Source: a virus. From it: 38,491 nt of DNA. Shown here one piece after another: positions 2,472-38,491 of the stretch. The translations under genes and the position numbers were made by a program. The stretch lies in the IMG/VR virus record IMGVR_UViG_3300029839_000006, one strand, 5' to 3'. The notes beneath the pieces are model-generated. The model worked only from the letters and a program-made list of their open reading frames with translations, was not told the DNA's origin and made no database searches. Every line of letters starts with the position of its first letter. Positions within the stretch are counted from its first letter, which is position 1.

Positions 2472-2578
2472 CAGGCCTCCTCGTCCAGCATCTTCTGCAC
2501 CTTCTCGCGCCAAAGCTCGGGCACCTCGTCGATGGTGCGCTTTCCGGCCTTGACTTGGCGATAGTAGATTTTCGCCAT
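2471..2578 (-). CDS. XkdX-like small phage protein (35 aa: MAKIYYRQVKAGKRTIDEVPELWREKVQKMLDEEA). It is not in the ORF track.
   Basis: ATG at 2578. Its stop overlaps the next ATG as TGATG. The pattern resembles the XkdX family (…AGK.T.EE…), which sits between tail-fibre and lysis genes. Confidence 0.5.
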   Translation of the reverse strand: MAKIYYRQVKAGKRTIDEVPELWREKVQKMLDEEA

Positions 2579-2580
2579 TG

Positions 2581-2988
2581 CTACTCACCTCCCTTGATTG
2601 CCGCCACGAGGTCGCCGAGCTCCGCGAGTGCGGCCTCCTGGTCCTCGATTGCCGACTGCTGCTCCGCGACCATGTCGCCGAGCTCCGCGAGGGCGTCGCC
2701 GCTATCGCTGGCGCTCTGCTCGGTCTCGTCGATTCGCTCGTCGAGGGTCATGCCGTCGCGCACGGCCTGCTCCCAGAGCTGGTCGAACGCCTCGGTGGCT
2801 TCGTCCTTCGAGATGGCGGCGAGGACGTACTGCTCGTCAGCCTGCCACTCCACGGTGGCTTCTCCGGCAGGGTCGATCTGCTCGCGCGTCACCTTCTGGA
2901 TGTTGCGGCGCAGCCTGATGTCCGCGAAGCCGTCCGGGCGCTCGTGGTAGTCCACGGCCTGAAGCTCCGCCGTCGAATAAACTCTCAT
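2581..2988 (-). CDS. Acidic hypothetical protein (135 aa) with a C-terminal ALAELGD repeat; an XkdW-like position.
   Basis: ATG at 2988 with a GGAG RBS. Strongly acidic. Its 5' 150 nt overlaps the RT 3' end in another frame. Confidence 0.5.
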   Translation of the reverse strand: MRVYSTAELQAVDYHERPDGFADIRLRRNIQKVTREQIDPAGEATVEWQADEQYVLAAISKDEATEAFDQLWEQAVRDGMTLDERIDETEQSASDSGDALAELGDMVAEQQSAIEDQEAALAELGDLVAAIKGGE

Positions 2989-4078
2989 CGAGTCTCCTCT
3001 CGGTCTCGGCAAGGCTCACGACGTCCTTGCACCGTGCGAATGTATCCTCGGCGTGATATTTCTCGATGACTCCCTTGCTGCAGCTGTGTTTCAGGTATCC
3101 GTAGTAGCTGATGCAGCGCCGGGCCAGCGGCAGCGGTATGACCTCCGACCGCCCGGCGAGCATGAAGGCCCGTCTGGCGCGCAGGAAGATGCCCGGCCGG
3201 ATGGTGGTCTTGTACGTGTAGAAGACGAAGCCGACCATATCCAGCGGCTCCTTATCCACGGCGCATACCTTCCACGGCTTCAGCTCGACGTGCAGCTCGT
3301 CGCTCACGAACTTGGACAGGCGGCGCGCGGCCATCTTGAGGTCGCGCTTGTCGTGGCCCATGAGCAGGATGTCGTCCATGTAGAACAGCACGTGGTCCAC
3401 GAGACGCTTGTCCGTCACCACGCCCGTGCGCCTGTTCACGCGCGTCTTGCGCAGGCGCTCCTGCGCGTAGTGGTACGCGCGCGAGGCGTAGTAGTTGGCC
3501 AGATATTGGCTTAAGAAAGAGCCGATGTTCAGGCCGTGCGGGAACTGGTCGAGGAGGACGCCGACGAGGTAGAGCAGGGCCTCGTTCTTCACGTCGCGCG
3601 CGAGCATGGCGCGCAGAACGTCTTGGTCGATGCTCGGGTAGAACTTGCGGATGTCCAGCTTTATGAAGTACCTGGCCCTCGGCTCGCGTATCCACTTCTC
3701 GATGGCGTGCTTGGCGAATATCTGCCCGCGTCCCGGTATGGAGGCCGTCTGGTAGTCGCCTATCTTGGCCATGAGCAGCTCGGCTAGACCGTTCACCGCG
3801 ATGTAGTCGAAGCGCTGGTGCTTCGGCGTCTCGCGCCCGATGATGCGGTGCTTGCCGTTGATCGGCTCGATTCTGTTGAAGTACTGGATGGGTGCGACCG
3901 TGACGCGCCGCTCGCGTATCTCGGCGGCGAGGGAGCGCGCCAGCTCCTCCTCGCCTCCGTATTCGTCCAGAAGCGCCTGCACCTCCCTGCGCCCGCTCTT
4001 GCCTCGCAGAAAGTCGCGGACCGAAGCGAGGCAGAAGCCCTCGTACTCGATGTCCACGCGCTTGCAGTAACGCTTCAT
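2837..4078 (-). CDS. Diversity-generating retroelement (DGR) reverse transcriptase.
   Basis: RT motifs: YFNRIEPINGKHRIIG, FYPSIDQ, the DGR-specific LNIGSFLSQYLANYY (IGxxxSQ), and FYMDDILLMGHD (YMDD). ATG at 4078 with an AGGA RBS. The TR lies 129 bp upstream. Confidence 0.9.
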   Translation of the reverse strand: MKRYCKRVDIEYEGFCLASVRDFLRGKSGRREVQALLDEYGGEEELARSLAAEIRERRVTVAPIQYFNRIEPINGKHRIIGRETPKHQRFDYIAVNGLAELLMAKIGDYQTASIPGRGQIFAKHAIEKWIREPRARYFIKLDIRKFYPSIDQDVLRAMLARDVKNEALLYLVGVLLDQFPHGLNIGSFLSQYLANYYASRAYHYAQERLRKTRVNRRTGVVTDKRLVDHVLFYMDDILLMGHDKRDLKMAARRLSKFVSDELHVELKPWKVCAVDKEPLDMVGFVFYTYKTTIRPGIFLRARRAFMLAGRSEVIPLPLARRCISYYGYLKHSCSKGVIEKYHAEDTFARCKDVVSLAETERRLDESLFDGGASGRGLPRAPGRLRGHQAAPQHPEGDARADRPCRRSHRGVAG

Positions 4079-4206
4079 TGTGTCCTATCTGGTTTTGGCG
4101 TTCTTCGCCGCTGGGCTACCAAACGCCGTGGGGTTGATATTTTCGTCAGTTGACGGGGCAAGCCCGCTCGAAGCGGGTGGACTCGACGAGCGTGTTCCGC
4201 GTTTGA

Positions 4207-4316
4207 CCAGATTTCCGACCGCCATAGTTCCACCTGTAGTTGCCGAGCCTGTTGTTCGAATTGCCGTAGAAGGCACCGTACATAGACCCATTCCTGAGAT
4301 TGCCGAAGCACTGCAG
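4207..4316 (-). repeat. DGR template repeat (TR), 110 bp.
   Basis: 84.5% identity to 4443-4552. All 17 differences are plus-strand T in the TR (A on the coding minus strand) replaced by other bases in the VR. The TR translation has AAC/AAT/TAC-rich codons (FGNLRNGSMYGAFYGNSNNRLGNYRWNYGG). Confidence 0.9.
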
Positions 4317-4366
4317 AAGGCCGAGAACCAAGCGGCTACCGCCGAGAACCCCCAAGGGACCTGGGA

Positions 4367-4409
4367 GGGGTGATGAGGGGGCGCTGCCCCCTCGCTTGCG
4401 CTTCACCCC
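4367..4409. other. Nested GC-rich hairpin immediately 3' of the VR (DGR target-recognition / homing hairpin candidate).
   Basis: Outer arms GGGGTGA (4367-4373) / TCACCCC (4403-4409). Inner hairpin GAGGGGG-CGCTG-CCCCCTC (4375-4393). Lies between the target stop (4421) and the TR. Confidence 0.6.
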
Positions 4410-4420
4410 CCGCACCATGG

Positions 4421-6016
4421 CTAGGCCATGGTGACCCCCAGGCCAGATAGCCGACCGCCAAAGGTCCACCCGTAGTGGCCGAGCCCGTAGTGCGAAGCGC
4501 CGCAGAAGGCACCGCACATAGACCCATGCCAGAGATAGCCGAAGCACCGCAGCTCTCGCAGGCCGGGGGATGAGATCGGGTCGGAATATATCGCGTCGCA
4601 GGTGCCCGTCGTTGAGGTTCCCTTGGAGCCTGTCGGCACGAGGAGGCCGGGGCACTTCGCGGACTCCTGCCAGTCCTCGTTGTACATCCACTGGCCGTTG
4701 GTCTTGCTGTCGCGGGCGGGCAGCTCGAGGTCGAGCTTGACGTGGTTGGCGTCGAGGGACGAGGAGTACTTGCGCGAATCGAAGCACTTGTACAGCTCGC
4801 AGTGGCCCTCGTCGGCCGACGTCTTGACCTGATTCACAATCACGTCGCACAGCGGCTCGTACGCTCCGCAGAGCACCTCGATGCCCTGGATGCGGTACGG
4901 CTGGCGCTGCTTGGGCTTGCCAGCGATGGGGTAGCCGTCCGTGCCGAGCAGGTTGTCGCACGTGCCCGTCTTCCACGGCATCGCGGATACGTAATCGTCG
5001 ACGGCCGTGGTGAACGGTGCGCCGTCGACGTAGACCGCGCATCGGTCGCTCATCGCCTCGATCTTGGTGACGGTGCGGTAGGCGAACGTGGACTGGCCCG
5101 CGGTCGCTCCTCGGTCGCTGTTCGGTCCGCAGACCAGCGTGGAGCCGACGAGGAAGTAGTCGGCCGCCGCCTTCGGCAGCAGCACGCGGTTCACGCCGGT
5201 CTCGGCCTCGAGGACCTTGTACTGGTTCGCGTAGTCGGTGCAGCCACCGAGGCTCTGGAGGTCCTGCGTGGCGTACTTGAGCATGAGCATGAGCTGGAGG
5301 TAGAAGTTGTCCGCTACGGTGCGGCCCGTGTAGCCCGCGCCCTTCTTCTTGCTGTAGCTGATTCCGGTGTCGTGCGAGCCGAACTGGAACGTGTGGACCT
5401 TGCCGGAGTAGCTGTGCGGGACGTTGTTGGAATCGCACCACGCGAGGTATGGCGAGAAGACGAGGAGCGGTCGCTCGGTGCCGTCGGCGTACTTCTGGCC
5501 GGGCAGCGGCCTCATGCCCTCGTACTTGGTGTCGGAGTAGAGCAGGCGCTTGTATCCGTTGCTGCGCGTGATGCTGTAGTAGCCGGGGCAGGCCATGACC
5601 CAGACGTCGCCGTTGGAGCCGTCGGCCCTGAAGCGGCCGTCGCCCTTCATGGCGGTGCAGTGGAACTTGCCGCTGTCGTCGACCGTGCCGTTGACGGTGA
5701 AGTACTCGAATGCGTTGAGCTTGGAGTAGTCGTCGCGGCCCGCCGTGGTGTTGGTGGCGGGCTGGCACACGAGGCCGACGTTGTCGCGCGTCTTGATGCC
5801 CTTTGGATCGTTCGAGTAGGTGTACTCGGGGATGTCGACGCCGTACACCTTGCCGTCACGGCGCAGGCTGAACCACTCGCCGAGGTTGTCGTACTCGCCC
5901 TTGGTGCCGTCGTAGTGCGGAGCCACGGCCACGGGGTTCGCCGAGGCCTTGTGCACCTTGGTGATGAGGTCGACGGTGTCGCCGAACGTCATGAACTTGT
6001 TTACCTGTACTGCCAT
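4421..6016 (-). CDS. DGR target protein: putative receptor-binding/tail fibre protein with a C-terminal variable (CLec-like) domain.
   Basis: 531 aa. The VR occupies the last ~40 codons. Strong AAAGGAGA RBS. It is the last gene of the baseplate module, downstream of the BppU-like gene. Confidence 0.8.
   Translation of the reverse strand: MAVQVNKFMTFGDTVDLITKVHKASANPVAVAPHYDGTKGEYDNLGEWFSLRRDGKVYGVDIPEYTYSNDPKGIKTRDNVGLVCQPATNTTAGRDDYSKLNAFEYFTVNGTVDDSGKFHCTAMKGDGRFRADGSNGDVWVMACPGYYSITRSNGYKRLLYSDTKYEGMRPLPGQKYADGTERPLLVFSPYLAWCDSNNVPHSYSGKVHTFQFGSHDTGISYSKKKGAGYTGRTVADNFYLQLMLMLKYATQDLQSLGGCTDYANQYKVLEAETGVNRVLLPKAAADYFLVGSTLVCGPNSDRGATAGQSTFAYRTVTKIEAMSDRCAVYVDGAPFTTAVDDYVSAMPWKTGTCDNLLGTDGYPIAGKPKQRQPYRIQGIEVLCGAYEPLCDVIVNQVKTSADEGHCELYKCFDSRKYSSSLDANHVKLDLELPARDSKTNGQWMYNEDWQESAKCPGLLVPTGSKGTSTTGTCDAIYSDPISSPGLRELRCFGYLWHGSMCGAFCGASHYGLGHYGWTFGGRLSGLGVTMA
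4443..4552 (-). repeat. DGR variable repeat (VR) at the 3' end of the 531-aa tail/receptor-binding protein gene.
   Basis: Offset 236 bp from the TR, with adenine-specific substitutions. Encodes the C-terminal FGYLWHGSMCGAFCGASHYGLGHYGWTFGG. Confidence 0.9.
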
Positions 6017-6026
6017 TATTTCTCCT

Positions 6027-6797
6027 TTACTGGCCGAAAACCTTGCCGAAGGCGTAGTCGTAGTCCTCCTGGGTGAGGCCTTCGAGGACCGTGTCGGTGC
6101 CGATTGCCGGGGCGATGATGGACTCGAACGCCTCGTCGATTTCCGCGTGCGTGGCGAAGACCACTCCCGCGCTCGCCATGGCGGCGATCTTCTCCTTTGC
6201 GTCGTCCGTCAGGTCGTCGTAGTCGACCTTGAGCGACGCGAGCGCGGCCTCGCAGCGGTCGGCGGCGCTGTTCGCCCGGCCGCGCGCGTTGGAGACTTCG
6301 TCCATGATCGCCTGCCACTCGGACGCGCGCACATCCTCGGCGTTGCCGTAGGTGACGCGCTGCGCCTCGAGCGCGTTGATGAGGTGGTCGATCTCTGGGA
6401 TGTAGTCGCCGCCAGTGGCCTCGATGGCCACCGAGGGCACGACCCTGATGGCGATGTTGCCCGTGGATGCGGACCAGTCGCCCGAGCTGATGCGGATGTA
6501 CGAGGTCGGTATGTCGCCTGCCGCCTGCGTGAGCTTGGCGGGGACGGTGTACTGCACGATTCCGTCGGGCGCGGAGAGCACCGCGACGTTCTCGCCGTCG
6601 ATGACTTTCCCGCCGTCCGGCCGCAGCGCGTAGAAGCGCACGGTCATGCCCGTGAGGTCGAGCACCGCGCCCCCCTGGCGCAGGTTGACGTTGAACACGT
6701 ACGCCTCGGCGTCCTGCTGCCGAAGCGTGATGGGGTTGTCGAGCGTCGAGAAGCGGTTGGTGCCCTTCTCGATGTCGAGCGTGAGGTCTATGAGCAT
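6027..6797 (-). CDS. BppU-like baseplate upper protein / tail-fibre anchor (256 aa).
   Basis: N-terminus MLIDLTLDIEKGTNRFSTLDNPITLRQQDAEAYVFNVNL resembles the BppU_N domain. Lies directly upstream of the receptor-binding gene. Confidence 0.55.
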   Translation of the reverse strand: MLIDLTLDIEKGTNRFSTLDNPITLRQQDAEAYVFNVNLRQGGAVLDLTGMTVRFYALRPDGGKVIDGENVAVLSAPDGIVQYTVPAKLTQAAGDIPTSYIRISSGDWSASTGNIAIRVVPSVAIEATGGDYIPEIDHLINALEAQRVTYGNAEDVRASEWQAIMDEVSNARGRANSAADRCEAALASLKVDYDDLTDDAKEKIAAMASAGVVFATHAEIDEAFESIIAPAIGTDTVLEGLTQEDYDYAFGKVFGQ

Positions 6798-7025
6798 CTA
6801 GACCGCCTTCCCGAGCACTACTGCTCCTTGCTTGAACACGAGCACCAGCACGCGGTCCCCGGCCTTCACCTCGGCCAGGCACGTGCAGGTGGTCGATATG
6901 GATGGGTTGAGCCGCACGTCGGCGGTCCCGTCTTTGTTGACTGCGGCGACGGTGCCCCACGTGTGGGACTCCTTTGCGCCCGTCCCGCCGAACAGCAGCT
7001 CGTACAGCTCGTGGCCGCTTACCAT
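6798..7025 (-). CDS. Small gpV/Gp45-like OB-fold baseplate spike protein (75 aa).
   Basis: ATG at 7025 overlaps the upstream stop (ATGGTAA). The motif AEVKAGDRVLVLVFKQGAVVLGKAV resembles Phage_base_V. The rest of the 196-aa track ORF is shadow frame. Confidence 0.5.
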   Translation of the reverse strand: MVSGHELYELLFGGTGAKESHTWGTVAAVNKDGTADVRLNPSISTTCTCLAEVKAGDRVLVLVFKQGAVVLGKAV

Positions 7026-31907: not shown

Positions 31908-32285
31908 TTAGAACGGGCAATCGTCGTCGTAGACCTCGTCGGGCACGTCGTCGCGCTTGGCCCCGCCGGAGAACGTGACGTTGTCCGCGATCACCTCGAG
32001 GCGGCTGTGCTTCTGGCCGTCCTTCTCCCACTTGCTCTGGCGCAGCCTGCCCTGCACGCATACGTGCGTGCCCTTGGACAGGTAGCGGTTGAGCGCCTCG
32101 GCGCGCTTGCCGAATACGGTGACGTCGACCCAGTTGGGCACGTCCTGCCACTCGTCGCCGACCTTGCGGCGCTCGTTGACGCACACCGAGAACCGGAGCA
32201 CCTGCGTGCCCGTCTGCGTGGCCCTCAGCTCGGGGTCGCACCCGAGGTTGCCGCTGATGGCGACCGTGTTGATTCCGCTGCTCAC
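31908..32285 (-). CDS. ssb: Single-stranded DNA-binding protein (125 aa).
   Basis: OB-fold pattern NTVAISGNLG…RFSVCVN…VTVFGKRAE…VCVQGRLRQSKWE with an acidic C-terminal tail DDDCPF. GTG start with an AAGGAG RBS. Confidence 0.8.
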   Translation of the reverse strand: MSSGINTVAISGNLGCDPELRATQTGTQVLRFSVCVNERRKVGDEWQDVPNWVDVTVFGKRAEALNRYLSKGTHVCVQGRLRQSKWEKDGQKHSRLEVIADNVTFSGGAKRDDVPDEVYDDDCPF

Positions 32286-37081: not shown

Positions 37082-38491
37082 ATGCCAGAAGATATAAAGA
37101 CCGCCGTCATATACGCCCGCTTCTCGTGCTCGAAGCAGCGCGAGGCCTCGATTGACGACCAGCTGCGCGTCTGCCGCGACTGGTGCGCGCGCGAGGGCTA
37201 TGCCATCGTCGGTGAGTACTCCGACTACGCCATGAGCGGCCGCAGCGACGACCGCCCGCAGTTCCAGAAGATGATAGCGAACGCCGGGGAATCGGACATC
37301 GTGCTCGTGTACATGATGGACCGCTTCTCGCGCGACGAGTACGACGCCCCGGCATACAAGCACGAGCTTAGGAAGAAGGGCGTCGAGGTCGTGTCGGCCA
37401 TGGAGGCCATGCCGAACGGCCCCGAGCGTATCCTGATCGAGAAGATATACGAGGGCCTCGCGGCCGTGGAATCGGTCAAGACCTCCATGAGGACGCGCAG
37501 GGGCATGGAGGGCAACGCCCTCAAGTGCAAGACCAACGGCGTGCGCGTCTACGGTTACGGCCGCAACGAGGACGACGAGTACGTGGTGAACGAGGACGAG
37601 GCGGCGATAGTGCGGGAGGCGTTCCGGCGCTCCTGCGACCACGAGCCGGTCGACTCCATCGCCAGCGACTTCGCGCGGCGCGGCGTGACCACGAGGACGG
37701 GCAGGCCGTGCGGATACTCGATGGTGTACCAGATGCTCCACAACAGGAAGTACACGGGCTTCTACTCGTGGGGAGGCATAGAGGTGGACGGCGGCATGCC
37801 CCAGATTATCGACAAGGCGACCTTCGCGATGGCCCAGGAGGTGAAGCCGAAGAAGCGCCGGGCCTCGGAGGACTGGGGCACGTTCGCGCTTTCCGGCAGG
37901 GCGATCTGCTCGGAGTGCGGCCACAATATGGCCGGGACGTCGGGCCGTGGCAAGAAGAACGTCAAGTACGAGTATTACGGCTGCCGCTGCGGTGCCAAGC
38001 CCGTCCGGCGCGACTGGCTCGAGCACGAGCTGGCCGAGGCCATCAGGGGGATGCTGCGCGACCGCGAGACGGCCCTCCGCATCTCCCACATGCTCTGGGA
38101 CGAGCCGGAGCCGGAGATAGCCGACGCGCGCAGGCGGGCCATGGCCTCTAAGCGCAAGGCCGAGAACGGCCTCCAGAACATCATGGCCGCCATCGAGCAG
38201 GGTATCGTGATGCCCGAGTTCACCGACCGCATAGCCCAGCTTCAGGCCCAGAAGGCCCGCGCCGAGCGCGATCTGGCCTCCTACGATGAGGCGCGCATCG
38301 ACCCCGAGGAGTTCGCGGACTTCCTCCAGTGCGGCGGCGGGATGGACGACGCGGCCGTCCTCGATTCCTTTGTCTATCAGGTGATGGTGACGCCGGAGGA
38401 GTGCGTGGCCACGCTCTACTGCGACGACGAACGCAACGAACCCGCACGACTAAGCATCGCACGGGTTCGCACATTTTCGGGTTGGTGCCCC
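37082..38491 (+). CDS. int: Large serine recombinase (integrase), 5' portion; the ORF runs off the window end and resumes at base 1.
   Basis: Translation MPEDIKTAVIYARFSCSKQREASIDDQ... has a resolvase-type N-terminal catalytic domain with the conserved Ser (YARFSCSKQ). A recombinase domain and a Cys-rich zinc-ribbon region (CSECGH...YYGCRCG) follow. Start ATG at 37082. No stop before the window end. Confidence 0.85.
   Translation, partial: MPEDIKTAVIYARFSCSKQREASIDDQLRVCRDWCAREGYAIVGEYSDYAMSGRSDDRPQFQKMIANAGESDIVLVYMMDRFSRDEYDAPAYKHELRKKGVEVVSAMEAMPNGPERILIEKIYEGLAAVESVKTSMRTRRGMEGNALKCKTNGVRVYGYGRNEDDEYVVNEDEAAIVREAFRRSCDHEPVDSIASDFARRGVTTRTGRPCGYSMVYQMLHNRKYTGFYSWGGIEVDGGMPQIIDKATFAMAQEVKPKKRRASEDWGTFALSGRAICSECGHNMAGTSGRGKKNVKYEYYGCRCGAKPVRRDWLEHELAEAIRGMLRDRETALRISHMLWDEPEPEIADARRRAMASKRKAENGLQNIMAAIEQGIVMPEFTDRIAQLQAQKARAERDLASYDEARIDPEEFADFLQCGGGMDDAAVLDSFVYQVMVTPEECVATLYCDDERNEPARLSIARVRTFSGWCP

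Follow-up and report, generated by a model that had tools for sequence, protein, structure and literature searches.

We analysed IMG/VR virus record IMGVR_UViG_3300029839_000006, a stretch of 38,491 nucleotides referred to here as the window. It carries a diversity-generating retroelement (DGR) at the end of the phage tail module. In all probability, this is a functional, accessory-less DGR with the layout target, template repeat (TR), reverse transcriptase (RT). Every defining DGR feature that is testable in silico was found. The baseplate/tail-tip module ends with the target gene (4421–6016), whose product is a 531-aa distal tail protein. All parts of the element are on the minus strand. The system is of a known kind, not a new kind, and belongs to the known accessory-less architecture. 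What we add is evidence for natural activity, a redefined mutable span, the absence of Avd and a covarying RNA. A first-pass annotation of the window had called the DGR complete. This holds for the RT, TR, variable repeat (VR) and target but not for Avd, for which no gene was found. Its reading of the locus as a DGR is upheld by the adenine-specific pattern of mismatches, the DGR-type RT, the position of the VR at the 3′ end of a tail-module gene and the population evidence set out below.

The TR (4207–4316) and VR (4443–4552) are each 110 nt in length. They align without gaps at an offset of 236 and homology ends at either side. The TR is non-coding in its own context and is separated from the VR by 126 nt. 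The VR provides codons 489–525 of the target. The copies differ at 17 positions. In each case an adenine of the TR, read on the coding minus strand, is replaced in the VR by G (six sites), C (six) or T (five). Thus, 17 of the 26 TR adenines are changed. The hypergeometric probability that all 17 mismatches land on 26 adenines among 110 bases is 8e-14. All 17 changes are at codon position 1 or 2. Read in the target frame, the TR gives LQCFGNLRNGSMYGAFYGNSNNRLGNYRWNYGGRKS, which is Asn- and Tyr-rich with seven AAY codons. By computation, changing TR adenines never reaches a stop codon. As expected for a DGR, the 3′ end of the target contains the VR in frame, and the mutable adenines are at codon positions 1 and 2. 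The repeat coordinates, the adenine-only mismatches, the Asn/Tyr-rich TR and the C-terminal, in-frame location of the VR had all been proposed in the first-pass annotation. Each was reproduced, by gapless alignment, tabulation or translation in the target frame.

The RT gene (2837–4078) is formally an open reading frame (ORF) of 413 aa. The conserved part spans approximately 2975–4078 (~368 aa). The motifs LNIGSFLSQY and FYMDDILL are present, the first-pass annotation having named LNIGSFLSQY and YMDD. IGSFLSQ fits the DGR consensus [I/V/L]GxxxSQ and YMDD fits YxDD. The protein matches Pfam RVT_1 and phrog_1423 (1.5e-65). The sole PDB sequence match is the Bordetella phage RT, bRT (8ub7_A, E = 8e-19), aligned through both motifs. 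This chain has D138, D215 and D216, the catalytic aspartates named for bRT. Homologues of the RT are 371–413 aa long. The last ~45 codons (~2837–2974) have a G+C content at third codon positions (GC3) of 0.47 versus 0.88–0.91 elsewhere in the gene. This tail overlaps a gene in another frame, and is missing from relatives of 371–385 aa, which end shortly after the start of that gene. We take the tail to be a non-conserved read-through over the next gene. Between the TR and RT there are 128 nt (4079–4206) rather than the 129 given previously.

Natural activity was assessed by comparing copies of the element, in place of the read mapping proposed earlier. IMG/VR was scanned with the repeat bearing N at each TR adenine, which recovered seven contigs. 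A further 13 genome loci were found via the RT alone and so are unbiased with respect to the repeats. Counts within copies refer to 21 near-identical copies holding both repeats. Diversity figures are pairwise, for 17 aligned copies. The TR is identical in 19 of the 21 copies, among which there are 18 distinct VRs. Of 351 mismatches within copies, 345 are at TR adenines. Pairwise diversity is 0.534 at adenine-templated VR sites and 0.0028 at the other 84 VR sites. The corresponding values are 0.031 for the rest of the target gene and 0.015 for the TR. Copies with the 18 different VRs diverge by just 2–3% elsewhere. Hence, as expected for one-way transfer, the TR is invariant and the VR is hypervariable among copies. 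The invariant TR, together with VR diversity confined to adenine-templated sites, therefore argues that the element is active in nature. The pattern extends to a wider lineage of 96 loci, with RT identity of 36–99% and 43 distinct TRs, where 1319 of 1380 mismatches are at adenines.

Two of these otherwise near-identical copies bear on the direction of transfer. In locus L004, five TR adenines are replaced and the VR of the same locus bears exactly those bases. In locus L011 there are nine TR changes. Four of these reappear in its own VR, a T-to-C change among them. The recurrence of most of the new non-adenine TR bases in the cognate VRs therefore indicates that information flows from TR to VR. 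TRs that have lost adenines are a feature of L004 and L042 (L004 3037–3146, minus orientation; five A-to-N changes) and of L011 (7763–7872; eight A-to-N changes plus the T-to-C change). They look like the outcome of occasional homing into the TR or of VR-to-TR conversion. Loss of adenines from the TR erodes the future repertoire of the element.

The comparison also redefines the mutable span. Among the 18 distinct VRs, 23 of the 26 TR-adenine positions vary, and there are single changes at two T positions. The span truly diversified in the VR is 4461–4548, which matches 23 TR adenines. These mutable adenines occupy codon positions 1 and 2 of 16 codons, and 15 are changed in the window copy. 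The resulting repertoire is ~7e13 DNA variants and 1.4e13 protein variants, without a stop codon.

The 3′ end of the VR (4443–4460) resembles an initiation of mutagenic homing (IMH) sequence. It reads TGGCGGTCGG-CT-ATCTGG and has a G/C-rich core at 4451–4459. The CT at VR positions 4449–4450 is matched by AA at TR positions 4213–4214, and is the same in 18 of the 18 distinct VRs. TTA, which also codes for the conserved Leu, is absent from this site in the same VRs and the next A is invariant. CT is fixed though TT would keep Leu. Therefore, this is a fixed difference and not a selected outcome of mutagenesis. Hence, the previous attribution of the mismatches to mutagenic homing stands for 15 of the 17 and fails for the two at 4449–4450. 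Variation stops at TR position 91 and none is found 3′ of there in the distinct VRs. By analogy, the last 18 nt of the VR appear to behave like the IMH/IMH* boundary of phage BPP-1. The arrangement is that expected of such a boundary: a G/C-rich GGCGGTCGG block, then the fixed AA/CT difference, with a hairpin downstream of the VR.

This hairpin (4413–4433) starts 9 nt after the VR. It has a 9-bp stem and a 3-nt loop, with a DNA fold z-score of -4.4. The stop codon of the target (4421–4423) sits within the stem/loop. Other lineages have a hairpin at the equivalent place but of unrelated sequence, for example ATATCTAAGCC/GGCTTAGATAT and TCGGTCTAT/ATAGACCGA. A second, nested structure lies between the VR and TR (4362–4414). 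Here, an outer stem formed by 4362–4373 with 4403–4414 encloses a G/C hairpin (4375–4393). The element bears the motifs GGGGGTGA and GAGGGGGC-loop-GCCCCC, which recur in all lineages inspected.

The spacer between the TR and RT (4079–4206) is predicted to form a structured RNA, from single-sequence folding and covariation. Helix P0 pairs 4179–4182 with 4082–4085. P1 (4163–4177) is CCCGC/GCGGG, with CCCUC/GAGGG or CCUCC/GGAGG as replacements. P2 (4144–4155) is CGUC/GACG, with CGGC/GCCG as the replacement. A single-stranded AAAAU follows (4139–4143), the last four bases of which, AAAU, are invariant. P3 (4097–4127) is bipartite, with a UGGUAG/CGAAC internal loop. The motif ACCAGAU is found at 4087–4093. 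Directly before the RT start is CCAGAUAG, a motif common to the lineage spacers, which are 122–204 nt long and share this architecture. RNAalifold, applied to 25 lineage representatives, identified compensatory changes in 9 of 14 predicted pairs. For instance, a G-C pair becomes U-A in 11 sequences. As expected for a structured RNA, covariation supports P1, P2 and a duplex between the TR and spacer. In the window lineage only, a second pairing is available to bases 4198–4207 just after the TR (GUCAAACGC), with the P3 5′ strand at 4119–4127 (GCGUUUGGU). It would compete with P3, so that the DGR RNA may have an alternative conformation.

In the predicted TR:spacer duplex, the strand at the TR 3′ end (4206–4212; AUCUGG plus U) pairs with ACCAGAU. 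Compensatory changes occur in at least seven lineages. Written as TR side:spacer side, the window has U:A, L037 has AU:AU, L039 and L040 have G:C, and L049 has A:U. In L059, L085 and L093 the bases are UUG:CAA. L010 and L038 have an inserted extra U:A pair. The duplex is AUAGGG:CCCUAU in L060, L074 and L112, and AUAAGGG:CCCUUAU in L068. Helix length differs little between cognate and non-cognate combinations (mean 6.0 versus 4.7), a weak contrast because most lineages share a CUGG/CCAG core. Hence, the argument for the duplex rests on the individual compensatory changes. In BPP-1, a TR:Sp homoduplex brings two bases into the active site of the RT: the adenosine that primes synthesis and the first base of the template. 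By analogy, the TR:spacer duplex is a candidate template:primer duplex for cis-primed cDNA synthesis. Synthesis would then begin just 5′ of TR position 4212, which fits the observed 3′ limit of mutagenesis.

These features suggest how the element might work. A scan of 2500–6300 for promoters and terminators found nothing above chance, and so co-transcription with the late operon is assumed. By analogy with BPP-1, and from the covariation, the TR and its 128-nt spacer would be part of the late transcript. The spacer would fold into a multi-helix junction, in which ACCAGAU pairs with the TR 3′ end and positions the RT for cis-primed cDNA synthesis. Copying would be faithful except opposite adenines. 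The cDNA would then replace the VR, with the 3′ crossover in the G/C-rich block, and the hairpin downstream of the VR would mark the target. The predicted outcome is a variable C-terminal surface on the distal tail protein. This surface is probably lectin-like and ligand-binding, and most likely serves host recognition.

The target family is large, with 294 homologues at E <= 1e-5. These include prophage proteins of Bifidobacterium breve, B. imperatoris and B. reuteri (47–49% identity). Conservation extends over the whole length of the homologues, save at fixed positions within the last ~40 residues (FGxLxxGxxxGxF...W..GGRLS). The profile of the family had no match in the PDB. In the C-type-lectin-fold DGR proteins Mtd, TvpA and TaqVP, variable residues are displayed by C-terminal strands and loops. 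A lectin-like fold of the target is likely but only partly supported. Directly upstream of the target, as claimed before, is a gene for a BppU-like baseplate upper protein (6027–6797, minus strand; Pfam BppU_N, 6.7e-17). Given this position, and the fold, the target would be the receptor-binding protein.

Could the repeats instead have arisen by simple duplication and later drifted apart through point mutation or recombination, without reverse transcription? Nothing but the existence of a repeat favours this, and it is refuted by the confinement of mismatches to adenines in the window (where all 17 fall on one template base; P = 8e-14), in the 21 copies and across the 96 loci. That one repeat is invariant and the other hypervariable, and that a DGR-type RT adjoins, also speak against it. 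We regard it as practically excluded. Alternatively, the mismatches might record past activity of a DGR that no longer diversifies in the window copy, being disabled by its RT C-terminus or by the lack of Avd. Indeed, the RT tail looks non-coding, no Avd was found and some relatives are decaying; two TRs have lost adenines and the RT is lost or internally deleted at some loci. However, the RT retains an intact core and intact catalytic motifs, 97–99% conserved among copies, and all 26 TR adenines are still in place. Moreover, the 413-aa form of the RT is present in all of these diversified copies, and 18 different VRs among copies that are 2–3% apart elsewhere require recent, repeated homing. 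The population evidence thus makes a relic unlikely, and we give it very little credence. A third explanation accepts an active DGR but makes the target a tail lectin with another role, such as adherence to mucus or glycans, or an auxiliary fibre. The receptor-binding role is drawn solely from position after the BppU-like gene and from fold similarity. Furthermore, an 806-aa protein encoded two genes upstream of the target, with carbohydrate-binding-like and fn3 domains, could be the primary adhesin. Conversely, in every relative the structural genes of the tail-tip module end with the target, and the DGR of BPP-1 diversifies a receptor-binding tail-fibre protein. Another role for the target is therefore the lesser possibility.

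Several observations count against a functional, accessory-less DGR and temper our preference for it. The activity that we infer comes from differences between assemblies. Searches for Avd across the cassette and all ~50 phage ORFs found neither a 23S_rRNA_IVP nor a four-helix-bundle match; the threshold was E = 0.01 for the cassette ORFs and most others, relaxed to E = 1 for 20 small ORFs that lie outside the cassette. To our knowledge, the only DGR studied biochemically needs Avd. Therefore, the mechanism here cannot be identical. In addition, the RT of this lineage has the odd, non-conserved C-terminal read-through noted above. Finally, the VR segment of the target structure model is of very low confidence, and Foldseek returned no significant PDB match for the model. 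Avd does not define DGRs, although about 74% of them possess it. The relatives examined all lack Avd and share a layout of target, ~340 nt, then RT.

The gene that follows the RT, here called ORFx (2581–2988, minus strand), encodes an acidic protein of 135 aa (pI 4.06). Its ATG has a GGAGA ribosome-binding site and is 151 nt inside the 3′ end of the RT ORF. Homologues of ORFx sit directly after the RT in every relative examined. Retrieval via ORFx gave 80 viral loci, with the RT directly upstream in 77. Two of the other three have the target and ORFx without an RT, and one is cut by the end of the locus. The RT is missing from between the target and ORFx in L099 and L101 (target 2743–4323, ORFx 5001–5309). 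Distant members of the family occupy the same cassette amid different holins, lysins and baseplate genes. In the structure model of ORFx (pLDDT 83.5), a long helix accompanies a sheet of four strands, and there is no informative structural neighbour. Therefore, ORFx is not Avd-like. An identity as an XkdW/XhlA-like protein was set aside, since it had gene position in its favour but no Pfam, NCBIfam or PDB-profile support. Apparent RT-ORFx fusions (P0266, P0274) were likewise rejected as a sign that the two proteins are functionally linked; in these RTs, internal deletions have shifted reading into the frame of ORFx.

Might ORFx be a DGR accessory factor? We think this improbable. ORFx is kept where the RT is deleted or truncated, which argues against a role in reverse transcription. 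The DGRs of Bifidobacterium-type relatives show decay, and other RTs have internal deletions after YMDD; ORFx is intact in all. In one lineage ORFx is joined to a CBM_5_12-like domain, which again argues against such a role. In this Collinsella-phage lineage (L037 6091–6786; P0254, P0260), the ORFx homologue is ~230 aa with the CBM_5_12-like domain at the C-terminus. The CBM_5_12-bearing form hints that ORFx is part of the virion or directed to the cell surface, as opposed to a factor acting on nucleic acids. The gene right behind a tail-fibre gene usually encodes a fibre-associated or assembly protein, a further argument against a function in reverse transcription. A related proposal, which we hold to be doubtful, is that phages of Collinsella, Bifidobacterium and some Clostridia retrohome without Avd by a ribonucleoprotein design of their own, possibly aided by ORFx. 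That design may be the covarying spacer junction presenting the TR 3′ end. If true, ORFx would count as a DGR accessory factor not described before, and the lineage would offer a compact two-protein system in which to study or engineer Avd-independent DGRs.

The window represents a complete phage genome, 38,392 bp in length and circularly permuted. Its first and last 99 nt (1–99 and 38393–38491) are an identical direct repeat. In related contigs, the lysin gene leads straight into the integrase gene. Together, these properties are why the genome is taken to be complete and circular. A serine-recombinase gene (37082–38491, plus strand) leaves the 3′ end of the window and resumes at the start, so that the genome is opened inside the integrase gene. 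The G+C content is 65% and the minus strand carries nearly all genes. Small and large terminase subunits, a portal, a ClpP-type protease, a capsid protein and a tape-measure protein are encoded. So too are a GH25-CW_7-LysM type lysin, a single-stranded DNA-binding protein (SSB), ERF, RusA, repressors and the serine recombinase. SSB maps to 31908–32285, and the ERF and RusA genes are among the early-region ORFs. In the lysis region (1295–2143 and 231–1298), a Peptidase_C39_2-like protein adjoins the endolysin. Related phages exchange lysins (Amidase_2 or CHAP) and five different holin families; the target-TR-RT-ORFx block is kept. Scans for Rfam families and tRNAs found nothing in the window.

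The phage is a temperate siphophage of Collinsella, a genus of human-gut Coriobacteriia. An RT search with one genome per species gave 13 prophage copies (97–98% identity). Two of these come from cultured isolates, C. aerofaciens DFI.3.30 and MCC370, and the other 11 from assemblies labelled Collinsella (nine), Coriobacteriaceae (one) or 'uncultured bacterium' (one). Clusters at 90% identity have 2529 members for the target (P0001) and 2223 for the RT (P0121), mostly from Logan assemblies. Therefore, the phage is very common in public gut metagenomes. Among GenBank phages, megablast with 2581–6800 gave no match; tblastn gave none for ORFx, and for the target only distant unannotated matches. 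In an engineered E. coli DGR, cDNA installation required the Collinsella-derived annealing protein CspRecT. By analogy, and as speculation, the phage's own ERF and SSB might assist integration of cDNA.

DGRs on gut prophages are common and have been catalogued. The present element provides a clean natural case in which a phage tail tip undergoes targeted hypermutation, within an abundant, little-studied gut genus. Its practical advantages are the cultured lysogens (C. aerofaciens DFI.3.30 and MCC370), a compact Avd-free cassette and dozens of natural variants, from which the variable sites are already apparent. Hence, it is tractable for asking how priming and homing proceed in the roughly one quarter of DGRs that lack Avd. 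The covarying TR:spacer duplex is a specific, testable prediction for Avd-independent priming.

The prototype for comparison is the DGR of BPP-1 (mtd-avd-TR-brt). Both are borne by phages and target the final ~40 codons of a tail-protein gene, whose product in BPP-1 is the receptor-binding tail-fibre protein (as described in PMC5758913). Both have adenine-specific TR-to-VR changes, RT motifs of the IGSxxSQ and YMDD type, and a G/C-rich IMH-like end with fixed TR/VR differences. In each, a hairpin is found shortly after the VR, and a structured spacer follows the TR, with a distal segment that pairs, in the present element by prediction, with the TR 3′ end. Unlike BPP-1, the Collinsella phage has no Avd gene, its RT core is ~40 aa longer and its TR is only 126 nt behind the target. 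The candidate primer strand is ~110 nt into the spacer, whereas in BPP-1 it is at Sp 47–56. The host is a Gram-positive actinobacterium and the phage is siphovirus-like with a BppU-type baseplate. With TaqVP, the variable protein of a Thermus aquaticus DGR (PDB 5vf4), identity is 13%, and the Foldseek E-value is 0.06–0.08 with an unreliable VR segment in the model. No sequence-level match between TaqVP and the target was obtained, even with the family profile.

The closest architectural description is that of Wu et al. 2018 (PMC5758913). In that survey, accessory-less Architecture A makes up 29% of the curated set, a TR-RT layout without an accessory gene is found in 75 of 372 DGRs, and Avd-independent homing is proposed for Architecture A. 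An RT group lacking Avd, 'Lineage 3', is also recognised there. As in that description, the target, TR and RT of the Collinsella element share a strand, and avd, HRDC and MSL genes are absent. By gene order the element fits Architecture A1, the CH1 gene being compared by description only. It differs in having the conserved, overlapping ORFx, which is outside the accessory genes named in the main text. CH1, as described there, is acidic, of 160–169 aa and confined to Bacteroides relatives; ORFx differs from that description in size and host range.

Collinsella phage DGRs are otherwise only entries in a large global survey, and we found no dedicated description of this element in the literature. 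The nearest counterparts are the DGRs of Eggerthella lenta and Bifidobacterium (PMC8778435, PMC8705816). These also belong to temperate phages of gut actinobacteria and have an RT beside a tail gene. For E. lenta DSM2243phi4, VR changes have been seen experimentally, and DGRs have been suspected in Bifidobacterium prophages (PMC8778435, PMC8705816). For most E. lenta clades a putative avd has been reported to lie between the target and the TR, whereas the Collinsella lineage has none. Conversely, the Bifidobacterium prophages have homologues of the target, RT and ORFx in the same order as the Collinsella phage.

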